A program made the position numbers and the translations under genes. The notes under the pieces are model-generated. The model made no database searches, was not told the origin of the DNA, and worked only from the letters and a program-made list of their open reading frames with translations. From a virus (Duplodnaviria > Caudoviricetes): a DNA stretch of 46,015 nt. The stretch lies in IMG/VR virus record IMGVR_UViG_3300032241_002818, positions 1 through 46,015 of that record; one strand, written 5' to 3'. Shown piece after piece: positions 8,622 to 44,429 of this stretch. Position 1 is the first letter of the stretch. The number at the start of each line of letters is the position of its first letter.

Positions 8622-9098
8622 TTGAACAAAACCATGAATTACACAACTTACATCTCAGCAGCTGAAAAGTTAGCAACTTTTGGTCAAAAAAATAAATCAA
8701 TGGCAATTATTAAACATGCCATTGGTATGGAAGAGCGAAAAATAAAAGAATTAGAATTTGATATTTTAGTTGGTGAAGTAAAACCATTTAATGGTGCAAA
8801 GTTTTTATCATCCAGAGTAATTAGAGAGAAAGAGGGAATAACTATTATATTCATATTTACTTCTGGTGATCCATTATTACCTAATTCTAATACACATAGA
8901 ATAAATGTGACTATCAATAAAGATGGTAGCATAAAATGGCACGATGGAAATTTATTTCTTGATAGAAAGTCTGTTAAAAAATTTGATAATCTAGTTAAAC
9001 ATTTATTCAACTACCAAAAGGATATGGTAAAAGTTTTATCAGATTTATCACTATCCAAAGATGAATTGAATGTTATTACCAGAACATTTTATATATAA
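8622..9098 (+). CDS. Hypothetical protein
   Basis: 158-aa ORF consistent with the gene-dense + strand. Confidence 0.6.
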   Translation: MNKTMNYTTYISAAEKLATFGQKNKSMAIIKHAIGMEERKIKELEFDILVGEVKPFNGAKFLSSRVIREKEGITIIFIFTSGDPLLPNSNTHRINVTINKDGSIKWHDGNLFLDRKSVKKFDNLVKHLFNYQKDMVKVLSDLSLSKDELNVITRTFYI

Positions 9099-9330
9099 TA
9101 TTGTGGAATTTGATTATAATATTTTATTTGAATTCCTATCAGAGGAAGATAAAAAATCATTTATGGTTTGGGATAATTGCATATTAAATATGGGTGGCGA
9201 TTCTATAGAAGTGGTTTATAGAGCACATAGAGCACCTTTTTTCAAAAGGTGCTTAATTCCTTTGATTGAATATGAATTGAAGTTAAAGGAAAAAAATCGG
9301 AACGATAAGTTGAACGAATTAGGAATATAG
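9070..9330 (+). CDS. Small hypothetical protein with C-terminal RxxK[LI]xx[LI] motif
   Basis: Ends KNRNDKLNELGI*. The true start may be slightly downstream (GTG near 9103). Confidence 0.6.
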   Translation: MLLPEHFIYNIVEFDYNILFEFLSEEDKKSFMVWDNCILNMGGDSIEVVYRAHRAPFFKRCLIPLIEYELKLKEKNRNDKLNELGI

Positions 9331-9359
9331 AAAAGGGGGCATTAAGCCTCTTTTTTTTG
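9331..9359 (+). terminator. Intrinsic terminator
   Basis: AAAAGGGGGC-ATTAA-GCCTCTTTTTTTT. Confidence 0.7.
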
Positions 9360-9412
9360 TTTTGGGGGTAAATGTTTTTTTATATATACATTAAATTTTA
9401 AAAAAAAAATTA

Positions 9413-11152: not shown

Positions 11153-11166
11153 AAATAATACTAAAA

Positions 11167-11198
11167 TAAAAAACCTCTCATTTTTGAGAGGTTTTTTT
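11167..11198. terminator. Bidirectional intrinsic terminator
   Basis: AAAAAACCTCTCA-TTTT-TGAGAGGTTTTTTT between convergent genes. Confidence 0.85.
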
Positions 11199-11619
11199 AT
11201 GCAACATTATTTGGTAAATCTATATAGAAATAGTAAAAAACACCATCACTAAATTTCATTTTTATTTCCAATTTGATATCAGAATCTAATAGATTTTTAA
11301 TAATCTGACCATTGGGTGTGTTTAAAATTCTCCATTTTATTTTAAGTTTCTCAATAGTTTCATCCTTTAATGTTAAACTCATAGAAACTATGAAAATACA
11401 AGTCTTTGATAATAAAATATCAACTTCATCATTATATAAGAAGCCATATTCTGATATATCATCAATATCAAATTGTAATTTTGTATTACCCAAAAGATTA
11501 TTTAATCTAATTTCTCTTTTAAATACAACCCATTGATTATATTTTGATAAAACCCTTTCAAATTGTAATAGTGTTTCACCATTCAATTCCAAATCAGTTA
11601 TATGATATACATAATCCAT
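11197..11619 (-). CDS. Degenerate, probably inactive prohead-protease (gp21)-like protein with internal RxxR-Lxx-L motif
   Basis: RILNTPNGQIIKNLLDSDIKLEI matches the gp21-family ILxTPxGxIxKxLxxxGxxLGxSSR segment but lacks SSR and the catalytic His. Contains FKREIRLNNLLG. Confidence 0.5.
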   Translation of the reverse strand: MDYVYHITDLELNGETLLQFERVLSKYNQWVVFKREIRLNNLLGNTKLQFDIDDISEYGFLYNDEVDILLSKTCIFIVSMSLTLKDETIEKLKIKWRILNTPNGQIIKNLLDSDIKLEIKMKFSDGVFYYFYIDLPNNVA

Positions 11620-11993
11620 CAGAACCTAGTAAAGTTGATCTGTTTTTTAAATAAGTCTATTGAGTTAACAACAACTTTTATTGGATCACCTAATTGGATT
11701 TTATCACCCATTTGATTAAATATTAAATAGTGTTCCAAATCAACATTCCAATTACCACCAAGTGTGTCTAATCTAATCATCCCCTCACATTTATTTTCAA
11801 TAATCTCAACATATAGACCTCTTTCCAAAACACCAGTGACAATCCCATCAAATATTTGACCTATTTTATCTTGCAAATATTCAGCTTGTTTATATTTTAT
11901 AGAATCTCTTTGGGCTTTACTTGATAGATCCTCTCTTTTAGAGATATGCTTACATATCTCCTCTAATTTATTTTTATCTTTTAAATTATTCAT
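11619..11993 (-). CDS. rnr: RNase R C-terminal part (end of RNB helix plus S1 domain), encoded as a separate gene
   Basis: AQRDSIKYKQAEYLQDKIGQIFDGIVTGVLERGLYVEIIENKCEGMIR..LGDPIKV..KQINF is the S1 domain of RNase R. Confidence 0.85.
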   Translation of the reverse strand: MNNLKDKNKLEEICKHISKREDLSSKAQRDSIKYKQAEYLQDKIGQIFDGIVTGVLERGLYVEIIENKCEGMIRLDTLGGNWNVDLEHYLIFNQMGDKIQLGDPIKVVVNSIDLFKKQINFTRF

Positions 11994-12010
11994 AATAATT
12001 ATTTGTTTAT

Positions 12011-13922: not shown

Positions 13923-13940
13923 ATACTATATATATACATT

Positions 13941-15563: not shown

Positions 15564-15618
15564 ATATCAATTATATATGATTTTTATTCAATTGTTTATC
15601 ATTAAAAAAATATGATTA

Positions 15619-15668
15619 CTATAAAAAATCCACACATCATTTTTATAGGAAAATTCAATAGATATATA
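15619..15668 (+). promoter_or_regulatory. Head-gene promoter: 17-bp upstream box, ATAGG and TATATA core
   Basis: CTATAAAAAATCCACAC (15619-15635) is identical to 17827-17843. TATATA starts 44 nt after the box start in both. Confidence 0.7.
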
Positions 15669-15698
15669 CTCTAACACATAAAAAAAATAATTTATCAC

Positions 15699-17825
15699 AT
15701 GAAACCAGTTTTGATAGTTGAAAACTCTATTAATTCTCTTATTAGAGAAAATAATAGTACTGGTAAGAAGGATTATGTCTTGAATGGTACATTTACGGAA
15801 TTTAATATTAAAAATCGTAATGAACGTATCTACACAGCAGACAAATTTCTTCCTGCTTTAGAGGAGATGAATGAAAGAATGAGCAACCTTGGTGTTGTTT
15901 ATGGTGAATTTGACCATCCGGACGTATTCGATACCTCGCTTTCAAGAGCTTCTCACGTAATTACAAAAGCTAATTACGTAAAAGAATCAAACTTAGTTGC
16001 TGGTGAAATCAGATTATTAAGCACTTATTGGGGAAAAGAAGCAAAGGCACTTGTTGATGACAATTGCCCTCTTTTTGTTTCATCAAGAGCTGCTGGTATA
16101 ACAGAATCTGATGGAACTGTATCATTGAAGAAATTGTTTACTTATGATATCGTTGCTGATCCTGGATTTGCTTCTGCTAAAATGAGTGTAACAGTTCTTA
16201 ATGAATCACTAGGTTATAAAGACCCACAATCTAACTTTAGGATATATGAATTATCTGACGAGTCAAAAACAGAAGAGTTATTTAACATGAACAAAAATGA
16301 ATTTGTTACGAAACAACAATTAACTGATTACTCACAGTATTTAGTTAAAGAATTGGCTTCTACTAAAAAAGTAGTAAATAGCGCAATTACAAAGGGTAAT
16401 GTTAACCCTAAAAAATTAGAGCAACTTTTAGAATATTACGATGAGTTGAACCAAACTAACACACAAGTTGTTAAATATTTAGATTATTTAGCTGAGAAAG
16501 TTCAAATAATGGTTAATGAAAATAAATCATTAAAAGAAACTACTGAAAAACTTATTGAACATAATGATTATTTAGCTGAAAATTTAGAGAAAGCTGTTAG
16601 TTATTCAGAATATTTAGCTGAAAACTTGGATAAGAACATTGCTTATTCCGAATATGTTGCTGAAAATTTAGATAGAAATATCTCTTATTCTGAATATATT
16701 GCTGAAAATTTAGATAAAAACATTTCTTATGCAGAGTATTTAGCTGAAAACTTAGATAGAAACATTGGTTACTCTGAGTATATTGCTGAAAATTTAGAAA
16801 AGAATATTGCTTATGCTGAATACATTGCTGAAAATTTAGATAAAAATATTGCTTATTCTGAGTATATCGCTGAAAATGTAGAGAAGTCAATTGATTATTC
16901 AGAATATTTAGCTGAACACGTTGAAGGTAATATTGCTTATTCTGAGTATATCGCTGAAAATTTAGACGAAAATATTGCTTATTCTGAGTATATCGCTGAA
17001 AACTTAGATAAAACAATTTCTTACACAGGTCTAATCACTGAAAAATTAAATGGTGGTAAATTAAATGAATCTCACGAAGATGCATTCCCATCATTGAGCG
17101 CACACGGATTTGAATCTCACGAAGATGAGGAAGAAGAGGAAGAAGGTGTTCATGGTGAAGAAGAAAACCACGAAGGTCATGAAGATGCTCAAGAAGAGGA
17201 AGAAAATGGTATTGCTGAGGTAACACCAGAACACGCTCACGCACACGATGATAATGAAGATGATGAAGAAGAATGTGGTACTAGTTATGAATTTAACGGT
17301 AACTCTGATTCTGAATTATCTGAATCTATTGATAAATTAATTGAAGAAGCTAGTAAACGAAAAGTTTCTGAAACATCTGATTTGAATTTCTTGAAATTCT
17401 TATCTAAATCACAAGTTGATAGCTATTATGCTTTGACTAACGAAGAACAAGAAGCAGTTAAACTTCACATAAACGAAAGAAGTTACTTCTCACAAAAAGA
17501 AGTATTGTCATTGATCTCTGAGTCTTTATCAACTAAAAACGAAACTCTTGAAGAAAGAGTAATCAGATTAATGCCAGAAAACACAGTGGCTATCTGGAAT
17601 GAGTTAAACGAAACAGCTAAAAAATCTATCCTTTCACAAGCTAGATTATACCCAGCTGATGTTTTAACTACAGAATCACAAATTGAGCATTTCTGGAATA
17701 CTAGAAATCTTAAGAAAAATGAATCAACTACAAAAAAATTAGTTTCTCACGAGGCATTAATTCAAGAGGATAAATTGTCTGATAGTGATGTAACTGCTAT
17801 TATGGAAAGATTCAAAAACATTTAA
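15699..17825 (+). CDS. Prohead protease (T4 gp21-like) fused to a scaffold/core region
   Basis: NRNERIY, GEFDHP, SH, VSSRAAG and TYDIVADPGFASA protease motifs in the first ~175 aa, followed by coiled-coil 14-aa repeats and an acidic/His-rich linker. Confidence 0.9.
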   Translation: MKPVLIVENSINSLIRENNSTGKKDYVLNGTFTEFNIKNRNERIYTADKFLPALEEMNERMSNLGVVYGEFDHPDVFDTSLSRASHVITKANYVKESNLVAGEIRLLSTYWGKEAKALVDDNCPLFVSSRAAGITESDGTVSLKKLFTYDIVADPGFASAKMSVTVLNESLGYKDPQSNFRIYELSDESKTEELFNMNKNEFVTKQQLTDYSQYLVKELASTKKVVNSAITKGNVNPKKLEQLLEYYDELNQTNTQVVKYLDYLAEKVQIMVNENKSLKETTEKLIEHNDYLAENLEKAVSYSEYLAENLDKNIAYSEYVAENLDRNISYSEYIAENLDKNISYAEYLAENLDRNIGYSEYIAENLEKNIAYAEYIAENLDKNIAYSEYIAENVEKSIDYSEYLAEHVEGNIAYSEYIAENLDENIAYSEYIAENLDKTISYTGLITEKLNGGKLNESHEDAFPSLSAHGFESHEDEEEEEEGVHGEEENHEGHEDAQEEEENGIAEVTPEHAHAHDDNEDDEEECGTSYEFNGNSDSELSESIDKLIEEASKRKVSETSDLNFLKFLSKSQVDSYYALTNEEQEAVKLHINERSYFSQKEVLSLISESLSTKNETLEERVIRLMPENTVAIWNELNETAKKSILSQARLYPADVLTTESQIEHFWNTRNLKKNESTTKKLVSHEALIQEDKLSDSDVTAIMERFKNI
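16569..17030 (+). repeat. Eleven tandem 42-bp (14-aa) coding repeats, consensus YIAENLDKNIAYSE
   Basis: Counted 11 units starting Y[LIV]AE. Variation is mostly synonymous or conservative. Confidence 0.95.
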
Positions 17826-17826
17826 T

Positions 17827-17876
17827 CTATAAAAAATCCACACTTGCTAAAAATAGGTAAAATAGGGAAATATATA
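17827..17876 (+). promoter_or_regulatory. Major capsid promoter: second copy of the 17-bp box, ATAGG and TATATA
   Basis: CTATAAAAAATCCACAC 17827-17843, ATAGG 17853-17857, TATATA 17871-17876. Same offsets as upstream of the protease gene. Confidence 0.7.
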
Positions 17877-17906
17877 GAATATTAAAAAAAAAATAAAAAA
17901 TAAATT

Positions 17907-19616
17907 ATGTCACACATTAGAATAGACAACGCGAAAGCGACAAAGAAATGGGCACCAGTTTTAGAAAACATGGGTGTTACAGGTGATAGAGTTGAATGGA
18001 TGGCGGAATACGCTGAGTTTCACTCAATCAATGAAAATGCATATGTAAATGCTTCTAACGTAGCAGGTATGGGTGCAGTTGTTAATCCAGGGATTAGCTC
18101 ATTAGCTGGTAGTACTTTACCATCTTCTGGTTATGCTAACTCAATGGCTGGATCAGGAGACGTAGGTCAAAACCTTTTACCAGTTGCTATGAAAATTGCT
18201 GCTCAAACTATCGGTTTGGACTTAGTAGCAGTTAAACCAACACCAGGTCCGAAAATTGATTTACTTTATATTGATTTCCAATATGATGATACTAGAATGG
18301 ATCCTAACAATGAAAACGAAAGACCACAAGTTTTCAAATTACAAGCAACTAACCAAGCTGCTATTAATGCTGTATTAACAGCTAACTTACCTGCTGGTGC
18401 TAACTTAAACTCTGGTGGTATCGTTGGTGGTAGATTATTCGTAGCTAACTTTACAACTTCTACTGCATTATCAGCAACTGAACCAACAGCTAATCAAAAT
18501 TCAAAATATGGTGTTTTGGAATTCTTAGGTTTTTCAAGAGTTGATGGTTTCCCAATGTTTAGAGCTTATAGACAAGCAAACGTTGCTGGTACATCTGCTA
18601 ACACATTATGGTCTTTTGATCAAACTAAAAACTCTTTTGGTCCAACAACTTCTATGAATTCTCAATTGTTGTTCATCGGTACTCAATCTGTATCTGGTGC
18701 TGCTGTACAATTAGTATCTGCATTAGAGGATCATATCCCAGGTTTCTCTGCTAACTGGACTGCTAATTTAGCTTCTGGTGATTACCCAATGGGTCGTCAA
18801 GCTGATGATGATTCTTACTCAGGAGTTATCGGACCAAAAATCTCTTCTAAAACTATTGCAGTTGGTACTATTGAAGTATCTTCAGCTTTAAGAAGAACTG
18901 AAATTGAAGATATCAAAGCTAACACAGGTATGGACATCGTTCAAAAAATGGAATCTATCCTTGTTAATGAGTTATCTCAAACAATTTCTAAACAAATCGT
19001 TCAAAAAATATTTGAAATGGGTACTTTAAATAGAAGTAATGCACCTCTTGCTAATGCTCAAGCTGGTACAATTGCTAACCAAACTATATTTGACTTAGAT
19101 ACTGCTTATGCTACTGTATCTGGTGGAAATGGTAATGTTGGTGGTGAAACTACTCACGCTGTTCAAAGAAAGTTGATCACTAAAATTGCTCACGCTTCTA
19201 ACTACATCGCAACTGAGGGTCGTGTAGGTCCAGCTCAATACCTTATCACAAACGGGGGACTTGCTGCTGCTCTTCAAGATATCGCTGGTTATACTATTAA
19301 CCCAGTTAGATCTAAATTAAACGGACAAGGTCAATTATACCCTGTTGGAACAATAGGAGATATCGCTATCTATGTTGATCCTTACATGAGATATAATGAT
19401 AACAGAATCGTTTTAGGTAGAAAAAACAATCCTGATCAACCAGGTATCATTTTCGTACCTTATTTAATGGCACAATCTATCTCAGTTATATCTGAGGCGA
19501 CTTTTGCACCAAGAATGCTTTTGAGATCGAGATATGCTGTAGCAGAAGTTGGTTGGTTCCCACAAAAACAATTTATGACTATTCAAGTTAAAGATGCTGC
19601 TCAATTATTGAACTAA
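17907..19616 (+). CDS. Major capsid protein (T4 gp23-like)
   Basis: KKWAPVLE N-terminus, LDLVAVKP, IYVDPY, GIIFVPY and TFAPRMLLRSRYA motifs. Strongest codon bias in the window; follows the protease/scaffold gene. Confidence 0.93.
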   Translation: MSHIRIDNAKATKKWAPVLENMGVTGDRVEWMAEYAEFHSINENAYVNASNVAGMGAVVNPGISSLAGSTLPSSGYANSMAGSGDVGQNLLPVAMKIAAQTIGLDLVAVKPTPGPKIDLLYIDFQYDDTRMDPNNENERPQVFKLQATNQAAINAVLTANLPAGANLNSGGIVGGRLFVANFTTSTALSATEPTANQNSKYGVLEFLGFSRVDGFPMFRAYRQANVAGTSANTLWSFDQTKNSFGPTTSMNSQLLFIGTQSVSGAAVQLVSALEDHIPGFSANWTANLASGDYPMGRQADDDSYSGVIGPKISSKTIAVGTIEVSSALRRTEIEDIKANTGMDIVQKMESILVNELSQTISKQIVQKIFEMGTLNRSNAPLANAQAGTIANQTIFDLDTAYATVSGGNGNVGGETTHAVQRKLITKIAHASNYIATEGRVGPAQYLITNGGLAAALQDIAGYTINPVRSKLNGQGQLYPVGTIGDIAIYVDPYMRYNDNRIVLGRKNNPDQPGIIFVPYLMAQSISVISEATFAPRMLLRSRYAVAEVGWFPQKQFMTIQVKDAAQLLN

Positions 19617-23036: not shown

Positions 23037-23039
23037 CAA

Positions 23040-23068
23040 AAGAAACCCACAATTTATTGTGGGTTTTC
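23040..23068. terminator. Terminator hairpin downstream of the tmRNA, overlapping the stop of the convergent HNH gene
   Basis: AAACCCACAAT-TT-ATTGTGGGTTTT. Confidence 0.75.
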
Positions 23069-24814: not shown

Positions 24815-25522
24815 ATGGATATAATTGATTTGATTATTGATGGAAATTTTACACTTTTTGAATATAATGATTATTACAAAGAGGATAAATATCTTATAGA
24901 CTTCCAAACATATAAAATTTCAGTTGCTTCACCAATTTCATATCCGAATATTGATGAAATGTATGTATTAAATCATTACATCTCACAGATTAAATCTGAT
25001 ATTAGAAATCATATTGATAAAAAGTTAATTGAAGAATTTAATACATCTTATGAGTATGAAGTTATAGATTTAAGAAAAAGTGGATTTAAAGTAGGTAATG
25101 ATTTAAACAATTATATAATAGGATTTACTGAATATAAGAATTTAATATCAAATGTAAGGATTTGCTCTAATATACAAGATGGTGTACAATTTAATACACT
25201 ACCCTTTAAAAATGCATCATATGGTACATCATATATTGTTGGAACTCTTTATGATAAAAATATCTATGTTAATCCATTTTTTAAATACAGTGATACTAAA
25301 TTATTTTTACTTAATGATATTAAATTAAATATAGGTGAAATTAAATTTAATGTTGTATCAGAAGCTGCCATTAGTCCTAGATTAATCCTAGATATACCTA
25401 TATCATTTAAAATTGGAGAATCAAAGATTATTTACATAAGAGATGAAGAGCAACCAGATTTACCATCCGAAGTAATTTCTAGAATTAGAAATGAGAAAAT
25501 AAATAATATTTTAAATGGATAA
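24815..25522 (+). CDS. Truncated major-capsid paralog with C-terminal RxxK-Ixx-I motif
   Basis: YIVGTLYDKNIYVNPFFKYSD and VVSEAAISPRLIL align with MCP YPVGTIGDIAIYVDPYMRYND and VISEATFAPRMLL. Ends IRNEKINNILNG. Confidence 0.7.
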   Translation: MDIIDLIIDGNFTLFEYNDYYKEDKYLIDFQTYKISVASPISYPNIDEMYVLNHYISQIKSDIRNHIDKKLIEEFNTSYEYEVIDLRKSGFKVGNDLNNYIIGFTEYKNLISNVRICSNIQDGVQFNTLPFKNASYGTSYIVGTLYDKNIYVNPFFKYSDTKLFLLNDIKLNIGEIKFNVVSEAAISPRLILDIPISFKIGESKIIYIRDEEQPDLPSEVISRIRNEKINNILNG

Positions 25523-25802
25523 GAAAAAAAGAAGTTCTGCATTATTTGTAACAACTGATACAAACAATAACAATAACAATGTTAGTTTAATTGGGAAAAT
25601 TACCGAACCACCAGAGATATCAGTAGATATCGATGGCATTGGTAGAATGGATCGGTTGGTTTTAGTTGACCAAAAGACTGGTATTGAATGGGAGTTATCA
25701 ATTTCAGATGGTAATATTTTAATAGAACCATATGATTTGGTAGAGAAAAGGGATTTTCGTATAAATAAAGTTATATACAATGGAAATAGAAGAGGAATTT
25801 AA
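25515..25802 (+). CDS. Small hypothetical protein with near-C-terminal RDFRINKVI motif
   Basis: 95-aa ORF overlapping its neighbours in an operon. Confidence 0.55.
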   Translation: MDKKKRSSALFVTTDTNNNNNNVSLIGKITEPPEISVDIDGIGRMDRLVLVDQKTGIEWELSISDGNILIEPYDLVEKRDFRINKVIYNGNRRGI

Positions 25803-26127
25803 TAGAATACATGAATTGGGTTTTAATATTACAATAGATTGGAATATGTGCTTTGCTATTGATTATATAAACCCCAATTCATCTTCACCATTAAATGATA
25901 TGATAAACATACTAGTATGCTCTTATGAGCTCTCTATGGACATTAAATTCATAGAGATTATGGAATACTCAATAGATATATTTTATGAATGGTATAACAA
26001 ATATAAAAACAATCTACTTAAAATGAATGATGAGGATTTATTTGATATAACTTTGGGAAATGTATCAAAAAGAGTTAAAAGAGATTTAAACTTAGACAAA
26101 CTTCTACCAAGAAAAAAAGAGAGTTGA
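25780..26127 (+). CDS. Small hypothetical protein with near-C-terminal RDLNLDKLL motif
   Basis: 115-aa ORF followed by a hairpin. Confidence 0.55.
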   Translation: MEIEEEFNRIHELGFNITIDWNMCFAIDYINPNSSSPLNDMINILVCSYELSMDIKFIEIMEYSIDIFYEWYNKYKNNLLKMNDEDLFDITLGNVSKRVKRDLNLDKLLPRKKES

Positions 26128-33309: not shown

Positions 33310-33416
33310 ACTTAGATAAACCATTACACTAAATATTTTAATTTATACGTGAAATATTTAATATATAAAGGAAATATTCGTTATAAAAACAAAAAACGAA
33401 AGAATTATAAACTATT

Positions 33417-34745
33417 ATGGGAAAACTTATAACATTAAATGACTTAGAAAGTCAAGAATTATTAGATAATATTCTTAAAGATGAAATAATTGTAATTGAG
33501 GATATACAAGGAAGTAAAATATGGGTAAATTGGAATGGTAAAGAATTTACAATAAAACCAAAATCTATTAGTAATGATGCTATCAATTTAATTGATTTAG
33601 CTATGCAGAACTATTATAATCCAGCAATGGAATACTTCAACTCACTAGACATAAGAGTTAAATCACTTTTAAATAAAAAATGGTGGTTTTGTTTTGAATA
33701 TTTTCCTGATAATCAACCAGCCAATATAGAATATGAAAAAGAACCTAAAAATAAACTAGTATTAACATCAATTAATAAAAATGGTAAATATGATTTTATA
33801 ATAGATGAATTGGATGAATATTCTAGATTGTTTAATGTTGATATGATTCCAGTTATATTCCAAGGTAAATTATCAGAAAGAATGACCGAAGCCATTAAAT
33901 ATTTTTTAAATACAAGTGAAGATGATTTAGAATATGTATTTGGTGAAAAATCATTTGCTTTTTTCTTTTATAAAATATTAAACCCATATATTGAAAGTTC
34001 TTTCCTAATGGATGGTGATTTCCAAAAAAATATAGAAAAATTAATAGTTAGAACTAAAAATGGTGATAGATCATTTGAATTATTAAATCCTTTATATAAA
34101 AAAGTAAGTGATACAAATTCAACAGATTTTGTTGAGATATACACACTAATACTCATAAATTTTCTAACTTTTTGTCAATCAATTAATTTAGATGATATAA
34201 AATTAAAAGGTAGTAAAAAAGATGAGATTTATATTTTTTTAATTTCAAAATTATATAATATGTATTTATCTGATGTTAAAGATGATCTCATAAATTTTGA
34301 ATTCATCATACCCGAATTTTATAACAAAGACAAGTTTAAAATTAACACCGAATTAATCGATAATAAAACAACAAAGGAATATTTAGACGAAGATCCAAAA
34401 TTAGAATATATTTTTAAATGTCTATTATCATCATTTTCTAAAAAAAGAAAAAAACCTATTGGCATATTCACTGAAAATTCTGTAAAACTCTTTAATATAT
34501 TCGTTGATGATATAAATAAATACATTGAAAATTATTTAAACAAAATACATGAAATAGAACTAATGAGAGCAGGTTTATTAGATTTTGATGATTTTGAAAA
34601 TATTATGTATGATGTCGATGGTGATAACCAAGTTTATTTAGATATTTACGATGAGTTTCAAAAAGGATCTGATAATCATAAAAAGAAAAAGGGTAAAGGT
34701 GGAAAACCAACAACTTCTATAATTGATGAAAAAGGAGCTGAATAA
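33417..34745 (+). CDS. RNA/DNA-ligase-fold (Rnl2-like) protein, apparently lacking the catalytic lysine
   Basis: IEDIQGSKI sits at the motif I position (normally EKxDGxN); CFEYF, IPVIFQG, IEKLIVR and LLNPLY follow in the order of motifs III-V. Confidence 0.45.
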   Translation: MGKLITLNDLESQELLDNILKDEIIVIEDIQGSKIWVNWNGKEFTIKPKSISNDAINLIDLAMQNYYNPAMEYFNSLDIRVKSLLNKKWWFCFEYFPDNQPANIEYEKEPKNKLVLTSINKNGKYDFIIDELDEYSRLFNVDMIPVIFQGKLSERMTEAIKYFLNTSEDDLEYVFGEKSFAFFFYKILNPYIESSFLMDGDFQKNIEKLIVRTKNGDRSFELLNPLYKKVSDTNSTDFVEIYTLILINFLTFCQSINLDDIKLKGSKKDEIYIFLISKLYNMYLSDVKDDLINFEFIIPEFYNKDKFKINTELIDNKTTKEYLDEDPKLEYIFKCLLSSFSKKRKKPIGIFTENSVKLFNIFVDDINKYIENYLNKIHEIELMRAGLLDFDDFENIMYDVDGDNQVYLDIYDEFQKGSDNHKKKKGKGGKPTTSIIDEKGAE

Positions 34746-34957
34746 TGAAAGAAATTAATTTAAATAAGAAGTCTGTAGAAGTCAAGACAACAAGACCTAT
34801 TATAGTAAATTGGACTCATGAGTTAGCACAAGATCTTTCAAATTATCATGGTATGGATAGCATATCTAGTATAGAATTTGCACTTTATAAGGAAATTATA
34901 AAAGAAAAACGAAAAAATAAGATAAATAAAATCTACAAATCACAAAAACATAACTAG
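34745..34957 (+). CDS. 70-aa gp23-like capsid fragment with C-terminal RxxK-Ixx-I motif
   Basis: KKSVEVKTTRPIIVNWTHELAQDLSNYHGMDS matches the canonical T4-type gp23 segment (..R.LKA.W[TS].ELAQDL.A.HG[ML]DA). Ends KRKNKINKIYK. Confidence 0.65.
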   Translation: MKEINLNKKSVEVKTTRPIIVNWTHELAQDLSNYHGMDSISSIEFALYKEIIKEKRKNKINKIYKSQKHN

Positions 34958-34977
34958 TCAATATTGATATAAATTAT

Positions 34978-36219: not shown

Positions 36220-36249
36220 AAAGAAGATATTTAATTTAATATATACAAT

Positions 36250-36804: not shown

Positions 36805-36807
36805 AAT

Positions 36808-36838
36808 AAAAAAAGCACTCAATTAGAGTGCTTTTTTT
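36808..36838. terminator. Bidirectional intrinsic terminator
   Basis: AAAAAAGCACTC-AATTA-GAGTGCTTTTTTT. Confidence 0.85.
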
Positions 36839-37568
36839 ATTTTATTGTAAACCACACATATTGTCTTTCCCAATTAGGAGTTTCTTTAAAGTAATAAGTA
36901 TTATCTAAAATATTATTAACTAAAATTAAACCTGGTTTATTTTGCGAACTTCCTCTACAAACAATTATCTTATCATTGGTTATATTCTCATCAAATATTA
37001 TATCAATACCTATATTAAAATCACCGTTGAACCAACGCCAATTGTTTCTACCAACTATAACTGATGTTGCTGTACCAATTCTACCTTCTGTTGCAATAAA
37101 ATTTGAAGCAAACATTATCTTAGTAAGAATCTTTCTGAAGTTAATATTATTATTTTCTTCTAATGTTTTATGTGGATCATTCATTGCTACATAATCTAAA
37201 TTTAGAGGACTATTATGTTTTTGCTTTGTATTCTTTTCTAAGAAATTAATAACATTATTATATAAAAACTCATTATCTTTATAATTTTGAGCACTTACAT
37301 TCATAGTCATCATCTGTGGTGTTATAAAACCACCAATAGTATCATCACCCCATTGTGATAAGTTAGATTCGCTATAATCACCATTTTCTTCAATCTCATC
37401 CAATACGGTATCAATAGCAAGATTTCTTTTCTTTCTCTTCTCTTCTCTTTTTATTTCTTCGTTCTCATAAACGAAGTCCACATACATGATCTGAGCGCTT
37501 GAAGCCATTGTTTTATTCTCTTCTGAATAGTTACAAATTTTTTCTAATTTATCTTTAAAAGCTATCAT
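36837..37568 (-). CDS. Internally deleted major-capsid paralog carrying an internal RxxA-Ixx-VL motif
   Basis: IMYVDFVYE ~ MCP LLYIDFQYD; RKILTKIMFASNFIATEGRIG ~ RKLITKIAHASNYIATEGRVG; NDKIIVCRGSSQNKPGLILV ~ DNRIVLGRKNNPDQPGIIFV. Confidence 0.75.
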   Translation of the reverse strand: MIAFKDKLEKICNYSEENKTMASSAQIMYVDFVYENEEIKREEKRKKRNLAIDTVLDEIEENGDYSESNLSQWGDDTIGGFITPQMMTMNVSAQNYKDNEFLYNNVINFLEKNTKQKHNSPLNLDYVAMNDPHKTLEENNNINFRKILTKIMFASNFIATEGRIGTATSVIVGRNNWRWFNGDFNIGIDIIFDENITNDKIIVCRGSSQNKPGLILVNNILDNTYYFKETPNWERQYVWFTIK

Positions 37569-38313: not shown

Positions 38314-38385
38314 ATTTTTAGTTAATATTTTATTTATTTTATATATAATTACTATCTTTGTTTAAAAAATATATATAAATAATTA

Positions 38386-38928
38386 ATGATTGATTTAAAA
38401 AGATGTAATTATATAACAGGTGATTTATCACAAGTTGGCTATGGTGTTTCTGATATAATAAATATGTTAGAACTAAGTGGCTTAAATTGTTTATTAATAA
38501 CTAGACCCAAACCTCTTGATTCATCCACTAAGAATGAAATAACAACACTAATTCATCACATGAACCCACAATATATGTTTAAGAATTTTGATGAGTTTGA
38601 AAAACTACTTAGTGATAAATCCAATTTTTTCAGAACTGATTTGATCGTATTTGATTTTTGGTCAATAAATAAAATATCTTTATTTAAATATAAAGAACTT
38701 ATTGATAAGTTAGAAATTGATTATATAATAATCGCTAAGGAATATACATATAAAACATCTGATGATGTAACTGATTATCACATAACATCACAGTACGATT
38801 ATAGCTCCACAATATATAAAAGTGAACGATTAATAAAAGATAATATAAATGGTTGGTCATCTACTTTTAAATCATTGAAAGAAGCTTATATAAGAGATAA
38901 GAAACTAGATGAACTATTAGGTGATTAA
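38386..38928 (+). CDS. Hypothetical protein (degenerate P-loop/RecA-like pattern) with C-terminal RDKKLDELL motif
   Basis: NYITG N-terminal strand without GKT; DLIVFD is Walker-B-like. Ends YIRDKKLDELLGD. Confidence 0.5.
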   Translation: MIDLKRCNYITGDLSQVGYGVSDIINMLELSGLNCLLITRPKPLDSSTKNEITTLIHHMNPQYMFKNFDEFEKLLSDKSNFFRTDLIVFDFWSINKISLFKYKELIDKLEIDYIIIAKEYTYKTSDDVTDYHITSQYDYSSTIYKSERLIKDNINGWSSTFKSLKEAYIRDKKLDELLGD

Positions 38929-38965
38929 AGATAATTAAAAAAGCCACCCTTAAAGTGACTTTGAT

Positions 38966-39157
38966 TTATCCTAATATAATACCTGGTGATCTATATCCTA
39001 TCTGTGTAGTGATTTCCAACATTTGAGAAGTAGTCAATTCTTTTGAGTTCCAACCTTTCTTTTTTGAATACTCATTGATAAATCTTTCTCTCATTAAAAT
39101 AGTTTCATCCATTGGAATTGGTTCATTCTTAATCAATTTTAAGTTTTTATCCTCCAT
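38966..39157 (-). CDS. Small hypothetical protein
   Basis: 63 aa, with AATATATA and an A-rich leader upstream. Confidence 0.55.
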   Translation of the reverse strand: MEDKNLKLIKNEPIPMDETILMRERFINEYSKKKGWNSKELTTSQMLEITTQIGYRSPGIILG

Positions 39158-39219
39158 AATTATTTTTATTTTTTATTTATATATTAAATTATTTTATTAT
39201 CTTTGTCTAAAAAATATTT

Positions 39220-39720
39220 ATGCTTGTATTCATAATATCACTTATATCAATAATAATCATCATATATTTCTTTTATATGAATAAGAAAATGATGGATAAT
39301 AAGATAAATTTAAATTGGGAAATGAAAACTGGTACTACTTGCTATTCTTGTAAAAGTAAAATATCAGATCCCATATTTTCATTTCCTATGAAACAAGATA
39401 TGGAAAATTTAACTTTATGTTTATCTTGTGAAAGAGAAGAAAAGTTAGATGTTGTAATTAAAAATAAAAAAAGTACAATAAATAAAGTAAAAAGATTTTT
39501 ATTATCAAAAAAAGGTGATAGGATAATCATGTTTAATTATATTGGGATATTAATATTCGGTTTCTCATTAAATATATTTTTAATGCTTATGGGAATTAAA
39601 AACACTTTTATATCCTTATATACATCTAACATATTAAATGTATCATATATTTATTTATTATATTATAAAACAAAATTAACAAGAGGGGATGATAAATTAA
39701 TTTTAAAAAACAATGTTTGA
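39220..39720 (+). CDS. Hypothetical membrane protein with CxxC..CxxC
   Basis: N-terminal and C-terminal hydrophobic helices; CYSC..CLSC followed by EREEKLDVVI. Confidence 0.6.
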   Translation: MLVFIISLISIIIIIYFFYMNKKMMDNKINLNWEMKTGTTCYSCKSKISDPIFSFPMKQDMENLTLCLSCEREEKLDVVIKNKKSTINKVKRFLLSKKGDRIIMFNYIGILIFGFSLNIFLMLMGIKNTFISLYTSNILNVSYIYLLYYKTKLTRGDDKLILKNNV

Positions 39721-40243
39721 GATAAAAGGCATATTAGAATTTGATCCTATTAACATATCCAAAAAACACTCACAACAATCAACTTGGAAAAAAGTTGCAA
39801 TGGTTCGTTTTTATAATGATGATACATATTTATATTATAAATGGTTATTAGAACAGAGATTTGGTATAAGAATTCCCGACACAAATGTATTTGAGTGGAA
39901 AGGAAGACTTAATGAACCAATAAGAGGAACCCACGTCACTGCTATAAATGATATCATAGATGATGAGATTTATACACAAGCTAAAGATATATTCCATGGT
40001 AAAGAAGTTTCTATTACATATGATCCAACATTAATTAGATGTAATAGAAAAGGAGATAAAATGTGGTGGCATATGAAAGTTTATTCAGATGATATTATGA
40101 ATATACGAACTGCTATGGGTCTAGGTGAACCTTATCATAGTTTACACTTGACTATTGGATTAGTCAATCCAAAGTTTATAGATCATAATGAATGGGTAAT
40201 TGATACTTGTGAAAAATTAAATATATATTTGCCAATAAGATGA
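39713..40243 (+). CDS. 2H phosphoesterase (Acb1/gp57B-like candidate)
   Basis: Two H-x-T motifs (GTHVTAI, LHLTIG) about 70 aa apart. Confidence 0.7.
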   Translation: MFEIKGILEFDPINISKKHSQQSTWKKVAMVRFYNDDTYLYYKWLLEQRFGIRIPDTNVFEWKGRLNEPIRGTHVTAINDIIDDEIYTQAKDIFHGKEVSITYDPTLIRCNRKGDKMWWHMKVYSDDIMNIRTAMGLGEPYHSLHLTIGLVNPKFIDHNEWVIDTCEKLNIYLPIR

Positions 40244-40521
40244 ATAAACAAATAATAAACATGTTAAAAATGTTAAAATTTGAAAGATATTTATTATCGG
40301 GTGGCATTGATTATGCATACTATAGATTTTATAATGGGTATATGATGGATTATTATTATGATAAAAATATAAAGAAAAATATCTTAATAATAAATTCAAG
40401 TCATACTCTATATAAAATTACAATAGATGATGAAAAAGAAATTATAGATAGTTTATTTTTATATTTTAAAGATCAAAAAGACATAATAAGAGAAATTAAA
40501 TTAAAAACAATAGGGTTATGA
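40240..40521 (+). CDS. Small hypothetical protein with C-terminal REIKLKTIGL motif
   Basis: ATGA-coupled operon gene. Confidence 0.55.
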   Translation: MNKQIINMLKMLKFERYLLSGGIDYAYYRFYNGYMMDYYYDKNIKKNILIINSSHTLYKITIDDEKEIIDSLFLYFKDQKDIIREIKLKTIGL

Positions 40522-40718
40522 AATTCAATATAGGTGATAAAGTAGTTAAGAATGACGAAAATTGGATGCCAAACGATTTTGATAGTTGGGGAAGAGGAAT
40601 AGGCATAGGTATTATAGTTGATCCACCATTTGATCTAGAAGATGATTCATTTGATGTTAGATGGCCTAAAGGTAGATGTTTTGAAAAAATAAACCAAATT
40701 AAAAAAATAACTAATTAA
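40518..40718 (+). CDS. Small SH3/KOW-like hypothetical protein
   Basis: MKFNIGDKV..GIGII..DVRW pattern. Confidence 0.55.
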   Translation: MKFNIGDKVVKNDENWMPNDFDSWGRGIGIGIIVDPPFDLEDDSFDVRWPKGRCFEKINQIKKITN

Positions 40719-40732
40719 TAATATTTATATGA

Positions 40733-41089
40733 ATGGAAGATTTTTTTGATAGCTTTAAAAAACCAGAACCTAAGTATGAACATAAAATAAAAGTAGTTCA
40801 TTTCAAAAAAGAACCTTATGATATTTACATCGGTAGACTACCTGGTGGTAAATATAATAAATGGGCTTATCCGAAAGAGCTTAGAAGTAAATTTCCTGAG
40901 GGAACCCCAAGAAAAGAAATTATAGCAGCATATGAGGAATATCTTATTTCAAATGAAGATCTAATGAATTCACTTTGTGAATTAAAAGATAAAGTAATTG
41001 CATGTTGGTGCAAAAATTTAGGAGGTGGTGGAAAGTCCTGCCACGGAGACATATTAGTTAAATGGGTTAAAAAAAAGTGCAATGACTGA
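40733..41089 (+). CDS. DUF4326-family protein
   Basis: YDIYIGR..KWAYP..ELKDKVIACWC..CHGDIL. Confidence 0.8.
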   Translation: MEDFFDSFKKPEPKYEHKIKVVHFKKEPYDIYIGRLPGGKYNKWAYPKELRSKFPEGTPRKEIIAAYEEYLISNEDLMNSLCELKDKVIACWCKNLGGGGKSCHGDILVKWVKKKCND

Positions 41090-41402
41090 AGAACAAATAT
41101 TAGAATGTACTAAAGTAGTATATGATTTTTTATGTGATGATTTTAATCGGAGGGATTATGATTCGTTAAATGAAATTCCAACCTTAAATGCCATGAGCAA
41201 AGTACTTAAAGTATATGGTTTTGGTATGATAGATTTTTGTCAATTTGTAAATGATAAATACAATTTCTACGAAAAACCCCTTTGGGTAAAAACAAGTCAA
41301 GAATTCTTCTCTGATGATTTTTCACAACCAGGTCCATCAAAGGCCAAACTTATGCTAAATTCGTTATTAAGAGATCAAAAACTAAACGAAATTTTATGTT
41401 AA
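41082..41402 (+). CDS. Small hypothetical protein with C-terminal RDQKLNEIL motif
   Basis: Overlapping operon gene; ends LLRDQKLNEILC. Confidence 0.6.
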   Translation: MTEEQILECTKVVYDFLCDDFNRRDYDSLNEIPTLNAMSKVLKVYGFGMIDFCQFVNDKYNFYEKPLWVKTSQEFFSDDFSQPGPSKAKLMLNSLLRDQKLNEILC

Positions 41403-41647
41403 AGATACACAGTAAAGTAAATACTCCATACGGAGAAGGAATATTAGTTTCTATGATTACCGAGTTTAATGGACTATACATTAAATACGAAAAAACAAAA
41501 TGTGTTGTTTGGTTCGGTTCAAATAATCCAGGTAAAAGTGATAATGGTCACGGTAGCTGGATATCAAGAGAAATATCCCTAAGTGAACTAATCAAACTAA
41601 ATCAAGATATATTAAGAGATGATAAATTATCAGAAATAGGCATTTAA
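41396..41647 (+). CDS. Small SH3-like hypothetical protein with C-terminal RDDKLSEIGI motif
   Basis: KVNTPYGEGILV..VVWF; ends ILRDDKLSEIGI. Confidence 0.6.
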   Translation: MLKIHSKVNTPYGEGILVSMITEFNGLYIKYEKTKCVVWFGSNNPGKSDNGHGSWISREISLSELIKLNQDILRDDKLSEIGI

Positions 41648-41776
41648 ATTATTTAAAATTACTTAAGAAAATTGAGAGAAATCCAAATTATTATTTATAT
41701 ATATCATGATGTTGCATGTTTTTGATCAAAATTACCAAAATATAAAACTTTTTTAACATCTACTAATATAATATCT

Positions 41777-41995
41777 ATGTTTGATAAAAATGTAAATATT
41801 ATAAAAACAAAACAAAAACAAGGCGCAACTTCTTTTTTAGAAATGTTCTCTAAATCTTTAATGGATTCTGGATATAAAGTATGTTATATAGGCTCGTCAA
41901 GAGAAAATTATATAAATTATAAAGATAATTTTAATTTTCATAGGATAATTTCATATTTTTTTAGTGAAGATTATAAAATGCTAAGTCTATCATAA
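41777..41995 (+). pseudogene. 5' fragment of an IS607-interrupted degenerate P-loop ATPase-like gene
   Basis: NIIKTKQKQGATSF..GYKVCYIG is a Walker-A-like region. The frame stops just before the IS607 tnpA upstream region. Confidence 0.55.
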
Positions 41996-44102
41996 TTATG
42001 TTTATAATATAGAAAATTTTTGATAAAGTTTATTATTTATGTATATTTTAAAAATGGAAAAAAATGACTTTTTATACTTAATATATAAACTATGGAAAAA
42101 TGGATAAAATTAAGTAAATGGGCTAAAAGTGTTGGTCTTACATATAGAACAGCAAATAGACATTTTAAAGAAGGTAAAATACCACATAAAACAAAAATAT
42201 TACCTTCTGGTGGTTTATTAGTGTGTGTAGAAGAAAATAATATTTTTGTTGATAGAGATTGTATATTATATTGTAGAGTTTCATCTCCTAATAAAAAAGA
42301 TGACCTTATTAGACAAATTGAAAGATGTAAAGAATATGCCATTAAAAATGGTTATAATATAACTAAAATTTATAAAGAGGTTGCTTCTGGTATGAATGAT
42401 AATAGAAGAGAACTAAATAAAATATTTAATGATTTAGATACTAAAAATTTTACTCTAATTATAGAAAATAAAGATAGATTAACAAGATTTGGATTTAGAT
42501 ATATTGAAAAATTCATATACTCTAAAAATTCTAAACTAATAGTTATAAATAATACAGATGATGATCAACAAGATCTTATGAAGGATTTAATATCCATTAT
42601 AACATCATTTTGTTGTAGAATATATGGTTTAAGAAGAGGTGCTAATAAAGCAAGAAATATAAAAAATAATATAGTAGATAGATGAAAACTATAGTTTATA
42701 AGATAAATGTATCAGATGATGATAGATGTATTATAAAGAAATTCCAAGAGGAATATTCTATGGATTTTCGTAGAATATATTCTAATCTTGAACTATGTAA
42801 AGATAAAGAATTTCTAATACATCTAAATACTAAATCTAGTAAACTAAAAGAATATCTAACCAAAGAAGTTATTTCATTTTATGAGAAATATCAATCAGGT
42901 AAAGATCGTATTTGTAAAAGAATAGAAGAATTAGAAAATGGAGAAATAGATAATAAAATATTCAAAAACCTAGTAAATCTAAAAAAATCACTAAAAGGTA
43001 ATATATGTTTCGGTGGTAGATTAAACTTACAAAGAAGAACTAAAGGTCTAATATCTAATGAGGAATGGAAAGATTTAAGATTATATCCTATAGTTTTCTA
43101 TGGTGAAACATCTAGAAAGGGAAATAGATTCTTTGACTTCAAAGACCTTTCTAACGGAAATATAATTTTTAAAATGGAAGGAACTGGTGTTAAAATTCCC
43201 ATTAGAATATCTAATAAAAAACACATAAAAGAATTATGTAAATTAGAAGAATTTGCTATTTTATCTAAAATTCCAATAACTATTAAACTATCTTATGATA
43301 AAATCTATTTAACTTTTGATGAAACAATTTTAAATGGTACTCACTTTGATAGTAAATTACACCAAAAGAATAAACCAAAAACTCTATCAAAAGAAGAAAG
43401 TAAAATATACTGGAAAGAGAAATATAGAGAACATGAATTATTATTAACAACAGGTAAATTAGATCGTTATATCAGTATTGATATAAATCCTAACGAAATA
43501 GGATTTTCTATATCTGATAGAAAACTAAATATAATAGATAAAGGATGCTATAAAATAATTGGTAAGGTTAATGAAACAAAAAGAAAACACGAATATTCTC
43601 AGATAATTAAAGAATTATTCAATAAAGTAAACCATTATAAAGTTAGCTATTTCATTATTGAGGAATTAAACCTAAATAAAGATAATTTTGGTAATAAAAT
43701 ATCAAATAGAAAAAATAAACTAGAATTTAAAAAGAATTTAATATTTTCTATAATAAAGAGAAGATGTAATGAAACAGGAACTATTCTTAGAGAAGTCAAT
43801 CCATGTTATTCATCATTTATTGGAAATGTAATTAATAAAGAATACGATCCAATATCTTCTTCAATAGAAATATTAAGGAGGGGTATTGATAAATATACTA
43901 AAGGATTTAAACTGATCCCGGATTTTGATAAAGACAACATATTCACTGATAAGATAGATGGATATGTTGATCTTAATCATTTTAAAGGATTTGTGGATTT
44001 GTTTAAATCTATCCGAAACAAGAGTTATCGGAGAAAGGATATATCCTTTTCAAGTCAAAAATTTACCAAAAGTGATAAAAGTCACGTTTGTCTATGTTTT
44101 TG
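41981..44102 (+). mobile_element. IS607-family element (tnpA serine recombinase + tnpB); ends approximate
   Basis: An ATGA-coupled tnpA-tnpB pair lies between two halves of one interrupted gene. No terminal inverted repeats seen, as expected for IS607. Confidence 0.8.
42092..42685 (+). CDS. tnpA: IS607 transposase (MerR-like HTH + serine recombinase)
   Basis: N-terminal HTH (LSKWAKSVGLTYRT), YCRVSS, DLIRQ, EVASGMNDNR, IENKDRLTRFGF, DLISIITSFCCRIYGLR. Confidence 0.93.
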   Translation: MEKWIKLSKWAKSVGLTYRTANRHFKEGKIPHKTKILPSGGLLVCVEENNIFVDRDCILYCRVSSPNKKDDLIRQIERCKEYAIKNGYNITKIYKEVASGMNDNRRELNKIFNDLDTKNFTLIIENKDRLTRFGFRYIEKFIYSKNSKLIVINNTDDDQQDLMKDLISIITSFCCRIYGLRRGANKARNIKNNIVDR

Positions 44103-44103
44103 A
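42682..44103 (+). CDS. tnpB: TnpB-like RNA-guided nuclease (RuvC, no C-terminal Zn finger)
   Basis: RuvC-I ISIDINP, RuvC-II FIIEEL, VNPCYSSFIG and RuvC-III YDPISSSIEILRRG. Lies downstream of the IS607 tnpA. Confidence 0.8.
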   Translation: MKTIVYKINVSDDDRCIIKKFQEEYSMDFRRIYSNLELCKDKEFLIHLNTKSSKLKEYLTKEVISFYEKYQSGKDRICKRIEELENGEIDNKIFKNLVNLKKSLKGNICFGGRLNLQRRTKGLISNEEWKDLRLYPIVFYGETSRKGNRFFDFKDLSNGNIIFKMEGTGVKIPIRISNKKHIKELCKLEEFAILSKIPITIKLSYDKIYLTFDETILNGTHFDSKLHQKNKPKTLSKEESKIYWKEKYREHELLLTTGKLDRYISIDINPNEIGFSISDRKLNIIDKGCYKIIGKVNETKRKHEYSQIIKELFNKVNHYKVSYFIIEELNLNKDNFGNKISNRKNKLEFKKNLIFSIIKRRCNETGTILREVNPCYSSFIGNVINKEYDPISSSIEILRRGIDKYTKGFKLIPDFDKDNIFTDKIDGYVDLNHFKGFVDLFKSIRNKSYRRKDISFSSQKFTKSDKSHVCLCF

Positions 44104-44429
44104 TAACTCTAATTAGTGAAATTATACAAAGGGATAATTATGATTATTTATTTATAGACGATATTTCATATTTTTATTCAAGTAAATTCTATAGTAAAAA
44201 TCAAATAGACGATCTTATAGAAAAAATACATAATATTCCTATTAAAAAAATATTAGTATGCGATAGATATGAATATTCATCATTACCAATATATTCTATT
44301 ATTTCAAATAATTTTCTATCTGATGAAGAAGAACATATTTTTGATAATTATTTAATTGATGGTATTGAGCCAACTCAAATGATAAAATCATATATAAGAG
44401 ATATAAAAATAGAAAAAATATTAAAATGA
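44088..44429 (+). pseudogene. 3' fragment of the IS607-interrupted gene (Walker-B-like YLFIDD; C-terminal RDIKIEKIL motif)
   Basis: The frame opens at the tnpB stop with no convincing start of its own, and it complements 41777..41995. Confidence 0.55.

Follow-up and report, generated by a model that had tools for sequence, protein, structure and literature searches.

A nine-residue peptide shared by as many as a sixth of the proteins of very large phages: a probable docking tag, also carried by pieces of core phage proteins

The 46,015 nt of virus record IMGVR_UViG_3300032241_002818 (Duplodnaviria; Caudoviricetes; positions 1 to 46,015, the whole stretch analysed, here called the window) raise the question of why 13 open reading frames (ORFs) with otherwise different products carry one and the same short peptide. 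This peptide, which we call the tag, has nine residues and the consensus R-[DNE]-x-K-[LI]-[ND]-x-[IL]-[LG]. A preliminary description of the window had reported it and had proposed a system of tagged decoys or adaptors. All 13 peptides were verified, and the ORFs are named here by their low coordinate. Ten copies are terminal: RNDKLNELG (9070), RNEKINNIL (24815), RDFRINKVI (25515), RDLNLDKLL (25780), RKNKINKIY (34745), RDKKLDELL (38386), REIKLKTIG (40240), RDQKLNEIL (41082), RDDKLSEIG (41396) and RDIKIEKIL (44088), with the arginine 10, 11, 17, 15, 15, 11, 10, 10, 10 and 10 residues from the end, respectively. REIRLNNLL (11197), RNLAIDTVL (36837) and REEKLDVVI (39220) are internal. The observation was confirmed and is far larger in scale than first noted: across the phage group, 7-18% of the ORFs, up to one in six proteins, carry the tag.

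The window comes from an AT-rich phage and comprises 57 ORFs, among them a T4-like head cluster with portal, protease-scaffold and major capsid genes. The capsid protein shows 72% identity to that of LR756502 (W01, complete, 642 kb), 71% to LR745206 (W06, complete, 635 kb), 53% to LR756504 (W07) and 51% to LR756501 (W02). Genome-wide tests were performed on such relatives, with ORFs called by an in-house script (ATG start, at least 35 aa, overlaps removed). Tags were counted at a matrix threshold of 12 bits, and the held-out matrix was trained only on the related genomes G001 and G002. Al-Shayeb et al. predicted that genomes of 634, 636, 642 and 735 kb of the Mahaphage clade replicate in Bacteroidetes (PMC7162821). 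The best bacterial matches of the ClpC protein encoded by the phages were ClpC proteins of Bacteroidota, and the group likely infects this phylum.

A loose form of the pattern was present in the last 18 residues of 10 of the 57 window ORFs, while 300 shuffles gave a mean of 0.11 and a maximum of 1. Shuffling of only the last 30 residues (1000 times) gave a mean of 0.15 and a maximum of 3 ORFs. With the matrix trained on the two other genomes, 12 of the 57 ORFs scored at least 12 bits (0.3 in shuffled sequences). The originally given pattern RxxK[LI]xx[LI] fits only 8 of the 13 peptides and also picks up one probable chance site in ORF 19723. A match of 13.4 bits in ORF 37555 (glycosyltransferase) was discarded as a chance match; five orthologs score 7 or less. 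The held-out matrix found 165 tagged ORFs in W01 compared to 3.7 after shuffling, and the full matrix found 177 of 1005 in W01, 58 of 474 in G001 and 21 of 277 in G002. Two genomes unseen in training gave 173 of 975 ORFs (W06; 3 shuffled) and 13 of 185 (G004; 0 shuffled). At 181 terminal sites the first position was always R, followed by D (95), N (40) or E (39), any residue, K (144), L (94) or I (87), N/D/K/E, any residue, I (100) or L (67), and L (96) or G (39), with lysine enriched four residues upstream of the tag. The distance from R to the stop in W01 had its peak at 10 (61 of 160 loose-pattern sites), tailing with 19, 11 and 8 sites. This tail and the internal copies indicate that the tag does not need a free carboxyl end. 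Some proteins carry two tags.

The earlier claim that the tag is conserved at the protein level was borne out. Codon use at the tag positions was genome-like, and six-frame matches fell into the frame of the called ORF in 95 of 99 cases in W01 and in 31 of 33 in G001. A DNA-level tag pattern gave 50 matches in W01 (control 4) and 7, 5, 1 and 5 matches in W02, W03, PTm1 and Lak-C1 (controls 4, 12, 3 and 6). The AT-rich genomes, and the fact that 65-67% of the tagged genes abut the upstream gene compared to about 30% of the others, would fit a DNA-level element, a by-product of translational coupling or a composition artefact. Shuffles, frame restriction, genome-like codon use, internal copies and the absence of the tag from AT-rich relatives nevertheless exclude such an origin as the main cause. 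Orthologs also kept the tag, in 52 of 56 cases for 11197, 21 of 23 for 24815, 22 of 22 for 25515, 17 of 18 for 25780 and 6 of 6 for a fifth window gene. Among 68 families with members in several genomes, 56 had the tag in all members and 11 included a clearly untagged member. In all 10 ORFs with an ortholog (14 queried; uncorrected; pS 0.35-0.80) pN was lower than pS, which indicates that the tagged genes are maintained.

The bodies to which the tag is attached are highly diverse. In W01, 174 small tagged proteins fell into 172 families, 115 of 125 terminal carriers had fewer than 200 aa, and only 5 of 150 scanned carriers (of 177) had a Pfam match. The DinG-type helicases of W01 and G001 carry the tag within a stretch that is missing from the W02 helicase, as an insertion. 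Among 32 relatives of 38386 (39-88% identity), R170 and K173 of the tag belong to seven invariant columns, and AF2 places the tag in the last helix. The proposal of a modular amphipathic helix coupling varied bodies to a common partner thus holds in its first part, a portable and by prediction helical element on unrelated bodies: the tag is likely a portable amphipathic docking helix. We consider it probable that this signal is read by a single partner.

Which proteins carry it? The preliminary description saw many broken copies of core phage proteins. A parent was recognisable for 6 of the 13 bodies, while the other 7 have none. The intact parents in the window, the prohead protease-scaffold gene (15699-17825) and the major capsid gene (17907-19616; both on the + strand, 15699..19616), are untagged, as claimed, and the protease keeps its catalytic His, Ser and Asp. 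ORF 11197 (11197..11619, - strand, adjoining the portal gene; internal tag 11491-11517) is a copy of the prohead protease domain (phrog_207, E 0.0075) that appears catalytically dead, as first suggested. His85 and Ser140 of T4 gp21 align to Asn and Lys, and both were replaced in all three aligned copies, so that the protein does not have the complete His-Ser-Asp catalytic set of gp21-type proteases; the residue numbers were confirmed on the T4 sequence. The tag of 11197 lines up with N-R-N-x-R-[IL]-Y, a stretch conserved among gp21 proteases, which may possibly have been its origin or an easy mutational path to it.

The three capsid fragments described earlier were also recovered. ORF 24815 (24815..25522, + strand; terminal tag 25487-25513) corresponds to C-terminal residues 444-505 of the phage's own capsid protein (E 1.5e-7), and 36837 (36837..37568, - strand; internal variant tag 37401-37427, present in 3 of 4 orthologs) to residues 418-448 (E 2.2e-7). 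ORF 34745 (34745..34957, + strand; 70 aa; variant tag 34910-34936, scoring at least 10 bits in 2 of 7 orthologs) is a T4-type capsid piece (Pfam Gp23, E 1e-11), nearer to residues 254-308 of T4 gp23 (E 5.5e-6) than to the own capsid protein (E 0.048). Two degenerate P-loop ATPases had also been proposed. For 38386 (38386..38928, + strand; tag 38893-38919 in the last helix, residues 161-178) this stood in the form of a RecA/KaiC fold without the Walker A lysine: the AF2 model (pLDDT 87.8) matched RadA/RecA/KaiC in Foldseek (E 4e-5). The fold search was needed because the sequence profile gave 0 matches against PDB sequences. For 44088 the P-loop call goes back to motifs seen by eye, and its intact ortholog matches ATPases only at E 0.76. 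This gene is also the only one to which the term broken applies. Its untagged front half (41777..41995, + strand) matches residues 1-43 of the intact, tagged, 164-aa ortholog in G001 (tblastn, E 1e-4), and its rear half (44088..44429, + strand; tag 44397-44423, 28.7 bits) matches residues 72-120 (E 2e-5). The two halves are separated by an inserted element (42092..44103, + strand) with a serine resolvase/transposase (42092-42685; Pfam Resolvase E 6e-20; phrog_6620 E 3e-50) and a 473-aa ORF for which the scans gave no family match; we take the element to be IS607-like TnpA/TnpB. The W01 ortholog of 44088 (108 aa) likewise comprises only the rear half.

Enrichment on such pieces was tested with profiles from T4 and clade proteins on small ORFs with masked tags, at a tag cut-off of 9 bits, leaving out ORFs with a capsid-targeting-like N-terminus, family members and the two halves of a split capsid gene in G004. 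None of 3680 reversed sequences matched. In the genomes with this tag, 21 of 30 core pieces were tagged compared to 484 of 2073 other proteins (odds ratio 7.7; orthologs inflate the pooled p). By genome, 7 of 10 pieces were tagged in W06 (p 0.006), 3 of 5 in G001, 5 of 5 in G002 together with G004 and 2 of 2 in the window. The sensitivity of the test was low; it missed 34745 and 11197. Several of the nine untagged pieces end in degenerate tags. Earlier, weaker fragment tests had given 3 of 8 for W01 and 5 of 10 pooled (p 0.02). The parents were capsid, protease, portal, terminase and gp41 helicase; further pieces derive from a scaffold repeat and the ClpC middle domain, and G002 has an inactive copy of the terminase ATPase with two tags. 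Family scans in five genomes added capsid pieces and few portal, terminase and polymerase pieces. Tagged G001 proteins that by eye resembled portal, terminase, helicase and polymerase failed the profile test and were not counted. Untagged capsid, terminase and portal pieces also occur, in W02 (542326, 276342, 623865, 15148) and W01 (316849, 542908). The tag was internal in 17 of 28 core pieces compared to 65 of 482 other proteins. Core pieces make up 21 of 505 tagged small proteins (about 4%, a floor value), and a decoy function would therefore cover a subset. More generally, the tag labels a large class of genes, most of them probably early, and the bait-like genes form one part of this class.

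The sister phages carry altered or different tags. The tag of W07 is shifted to R-K-x-[IRK]-I-[END]-x-L-[LN], with 107 tagged ORFs among 971; the held-out part gave 27 of 343, and none after shuffling. Positions 1-28000 of W07 (L231-L232) contain tandem paralog arrays of tagged 70-100-aa proteins, unlike the singleton bodies of W01. This proteome-wide shift suggests one co-evolving reader. In W02, the original tag was at chance level (6 of 1066 ORFs, 3 shuffled) and the W07-type tag was also absent. Instead, the peptide DPYGEExW was found there on 94 of 1066 ORFs (L154-L190; 95 matches, one dropped), often 10 residues from the end and in up to four copies per protein; it was not found in W03-W07. 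It marked 5 of 13 pieces of protease, portal, capsid, sheath and scaffold compared to 61 of 812 other proteins (p 0.002). That sister lineages carry unrelated tags on similar kinds of pieces suggests that this design was selected more than once. In the capsid tree, W02 and W07 were joined at 88/97 with long branches. Since the W02 tag also lies on capsid-targeting-like and late-leaning genes, we do not assume that the two tags are equivalent. A W03 sample of 271 ORFs had neither tag type. The 5-mers NADDF/DDFGF occur there (L263-L270) in up to 9 of the 271 proteins and are possibly a further tag.

The expression class of the tagged genes was compared to that of genes with an N-terminus resembling the T4 capsid-targeting sequence, defined by a pattern of our own (120 of 1005 ORFs in W01; window ORFs starting at 21306, 26629, 27986 and 28789). 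The two classes hardly overlap (2 compared to 21 expected, and 0 compared to 7.5 expected). The motif AATATATA, presumably the late promoter, was present upstream of 51% of the capsid-targeting-like genes and 2% of the tagged genes. Walking upstream, a TAnnTTTG-type motif, which we take to be a host-type promoter, was met, relative to the late motif, at ratios of 66:26, 71:29 and 34:13 for tagged genes and of 3:123, 8:90 and 2:57 for capsid-targeting-like genes. At the operon level, 26 of 177 tagged genes had the late motif compared to 123 of 133 capsid-targeting-like genes. Judged by these motifs, the tagged genes as a class are likely expressed early. This bears on the idea that the tag is a second signal for capsid packaging or scaffold binding, similar to T4 capsid targeting. 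The small hypervariable bodies with a constant terminal peptide recall the T4 internal proteins (PMC3012670), the W02 tag occurs on late genes, and the tag of 11197 falls on the protease stretch mentioned above; the near exclusion of the two classes and the rarity of the late motif make such a signal rather unlikely.

The spacing D-x-x-L-x-x-L-L also recalls PIP boxes and the tails of T4 proteins that bind the gp45 clamp, where L-x-x-L-L occurs near the C-terminus as in the tag. A helicase carries the tag, and the start of the rear half of the polymerase scores 12.6 and 9.4 bits. The invariant R1 and the K4 of the tag are not part of clamp motifs, however, and the clients expected for a clamp motif lack it: the late sigma factor is untagged, the polymerase ends in a different peptide, and the carriers are almost all small proteins without assigned function. 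We therefore regard binding to the sliding clamp of the phage through a PIP-box-like motif as very improbable.

Which partner may read the tag? In W01, 51 genes were shared with W06 and W07 and missing from W02, and the coherent set among them, ClpP, ClpS and the UVR protein described below, was proteolytic. W01 encodes three ClpP copies and ClpS. ClpC without its N-domain and with the middle domain kept was found in W01 (440544-442667), W06, W07 and G001 (L095:14957-17092), while W02 has a ClpB-like protein with an N-domain and without the middle domain. A search for ClpC in W03, W04 and W05, run without a positive control, was empty, and no stand-alone Clp N-domain was found in the tagged phages. 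A 135-aa protein with a UVR domain and an N-terminal part without assignment is present in W01, W06, W07, G001 (L092:10810-11217) and G003, and was not found in W02, W03, W04 and W05; it corresponds to 535 clusters, and in the Atlas only viral UVR clusters were matched. Three tagged proteins are pieces of the ClpC middle domain. A Clp ATPase and ClpP are thus available to the tagged phages through their own ClpC, ClpP and ClpS. Structure prediction added little: the UVR protein gave an AF2 model with pTM 0.32 and no fold match, a three-chain complex of residues 149-180 of 38386, the N-domain of a Bacteroidota ClpC and the UVR protein scored 0.00 in a run without controls, which counts neither for nor against binding, and an Atlas search with the tag piece gave no lead. 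ClpP or ClpS is present in jumbo phages (PMC7824862).

Because the phages encode an N-domain-less ClpC, ClpP, ClpS and the UVR protein, we favour a route in which the tag forms an amphipathic helix and brings small proteins, probably made early, to a common partner. This partner would most likely be a Clp unfoldase or protease that removes the bound target; we give this a probability of about 0.3. The variable body would bind a target, and the Clp machine would remove what the body holds. The reader may be ClpC of the host; alternatively, the UVR protein of the phage may read the tag and dock on the middle domain of ClpC. In the case of the capsid, protease, portal, terminase and RecA/helicase pieces, the target held by the body would be a pattern sensor of the host. 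Sensors of the Avs families bind core folds and thereby recognise capsid, portal, terminase, polymerase and RecA-type domains; for Avs20, the binding of RecA-type domains does not depend on catalysis (PMC13581612). The T4 protein vs.8, a stand-alone terminase-like ATPase, was toxic together with Avs2 and not protective (PMC13601566). A bare piece may thus trigger the sensor, a difficulty that a handle removing the complex would resolve: the tagged piece would deliver the sensor for unfolding. The earlier claim that the parents of tagged bodies are immune triggers agrees with these published triggers. The claim of tagged decoys or adaptors against immune sensors gains from the enrichment on pieces with trigger parents and is limited to the subset of about 4% that, from homology, would be non-functional relatives of known triggers. 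The early bias was measured for the tagged class as a whole.

Several observations speak against the Clp route or its immune role. About 96% of the tagged bodies are not recognisable core pieces; the enrichment was not significant in W01 (4 of 8 pieces, p 0.22), and in W07 neither of two pieces was tagged. Apparently intact enzymes such as the helicase and a riboflavin kinase carry the tag, which is odd for a degradation handle. The usual adaptor-binding domain of Clp proteins is the N-domain, and the phage ClpC lacks it. The link to Clp is one of co-occurrence only, shared by 51 W01 genes over few lineages with unsure branching. The UVR protein was not found in the tagged G002, a likely partial genome, and its gene is fixed beside an S1-like gene in four of four genomes, which hints at a role in translation. 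Tag-poor W03 has a ClpP, and W02 has the design of tagged pieces although it lacks ClpP, ClpS and the UVR protein. The W02 tag lies on both early-type and capsid-targeting-like genes (15 of 95) and leans late (24:43). For 80 of 177, 70 of 173 and 10 of 58 tagged genes, the upstream walk reached neither of the two motifs. Avs sensors read whole folds, which the smallest pieces are not, and the toxicity of vs.8 shows a piece that triggers and does not protect.

Several of these points would also fit docking on a non-proteolytic hub, which could be a scaffold made by the phage, a host protein of high abundance or other tags. Such a hub would bring baits, their targets and a few enzymes together at one site, and sensors would be held and not destroyed. 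The evidence for a single reader applies to it in full, as do the tags on intact-looking enzymes, the frequent internal tags in core pieces with no need for a free C-terminus, the ClpP-free design of W02 and the proteins with two tags. No hub gene was singled out among the 51 candidates, and holding an activated sensor may not silence it. We rate this hub as level with the Clp adaptor route, which is itself the best single mechanism and still tentative. The tag may instead determine how long early proteins of the phage persist, as degron or shield; the pieces would then poison the assembly of co-infecting phages or time that of the phage itself, and would not be immune baits. The early bias, the Clp and tmRNA genes, and the closeness of 34745 to T4 gp23 would fit; 24815 and 36837 are nearest to the own capsid, a plain degron would not need to be spliced into loops of the pieces, and RecA-fold and ClpC pieces are not assembly parts. 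We find this improbable.

Extending the Clp route further, the phages could run a programmable degradation or capture system, with more than 170 modular adaptors per genome, a reader tuned by the phage and sensors removed before late proteins appear. The trigger mimics would comprise capsid, portal, protease, terminase, helicase and sheath pieces under one swappable peptide. Both the system and this role of the mimics are speculative and, in our judgement, doubtful. Neither the tag nor tagged trigger pieces were described in the literature searched, which included few subscription papers, in agreement with the statement that no system of this kind was known; the supplements of PMC7162821 may annotate some of the carriers. 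New here are the held-out genome-wide counts, the shift and swap of the tag between lineages, the measured preference for core pieces and a candidate for the reader. In some of the largest known phage genomes, as many as a sixth of the genes, nearly all unannotated, bear a single peptide. Finding its reader would provide a shared mechanism for hundreds of uncharacterised proteins, and the tag can be used to select candidate genes for host takeover and counter-defence. With the tagged core pieces, it can be tested directly by what means phages could avoid sensors that read indispensable folds, from which escape by point mutation is difficult.

The remaining tagged ORFs of the window, all on the + strand, have bodies without a recognised parent. 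They are 9070..9330 (86 aa; tag 9298-9324; 22.8 bits; tagged in 2 of 2 orthologs), 25515..25802 (95 aa; variant tag 25749-25775; 10.6 bits), 25780..26127 (115 aa; variant tag 26080-26106; 18.7 bits), 40240..40521 (93 aa; tag 40489-40515; 20.9 bits), 41082..41402 (106 aa; tag 41370-41396; 25.4 bits) and 41396..41647 (83 aa; tag 41615-41641; 21.0 bits); ortholog searches for 40240 and 41396 were empty. The internal tag (39433-39459) of the 166-aa protein 39220..39720 is doubtful, with 10.3 bits and a tag in only 1 of 4 orthologs, while the similarly low score of 25515 goes along with full conservation. A tmRNA lies at 22675-23039 (+ strand; whole-model match to Rfam RF00023, E 7e-8, below the gathering score and missed by ARAGORN). 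It has a reading frame that is longer than in typical tags and has been kept throughout the clade; the tmRNA peptide was rejected as the source of the tag, as it scores -5.7 bits on the tag matrix. RNase R is encoded at 11619-13576 in two ORFs, and SmpB is present in W01. Large ORFs between the head genes (3628-5430, 13941-15563, 19723-21273, 23054-23683) look like homing endonucleases by eye, and an open frame running off the window edge at 1-800 (- strand) reads in translation like a clamp-loader-type P-loop protein. PADLOC gave 1 weak match in 16 proteins, and no RNA holders were listed for 33400-42000.

Known systems share single features with the tag. Poxvirus ankyrin/F-box-like adaptors combine varied binding bodies with one C-terminal docking module for a degradation machine; they are eukaryotic and ubiquitin-based, with paralogous bodies, and serve as an analogy only. 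MecA, SspB and ClpS are examples of Clp adaptors and tethering tails. The T4 capsid-targeting sequence is likewise one constant short peptide on hypervariable small proteins, some of which act in counter-defence (PMC3012670). The T4 signal is N-terminal and serves packaging, whereas the tag mostly starts 10 residues from the stop and, by the presumed promoter labels, its genes are not late. These phages possess a separate N-terminal class of the T4 type that has the late motif and is nearly free of tags. The triggers of Avs/STAND sensors, namely capsid, portal, terminase ATPase and RecA/helicase, are parents of tagged pieces (PMC13581612; PMC13601566). T4 vs.8 resembles these pieces as a stand-alone partial trigger copy and differs in its toxicity with Avs2, with no tag reported for it (PMC13601566); a library of tagged trigger pieces was not found in the literature searched. 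Gp53 of phage SPO1, an adaptor acting on ClpC, is a precedent for the use of ClpCP by a phage (PMC6873191). Clp adaptors of this kind similarly join a variable target-binding part to a short docking part. The known cases are single adaptors, whereas in the present phages a single peptide is common to more than 170 unrelated bodies per genome, with a putative link to Clp.

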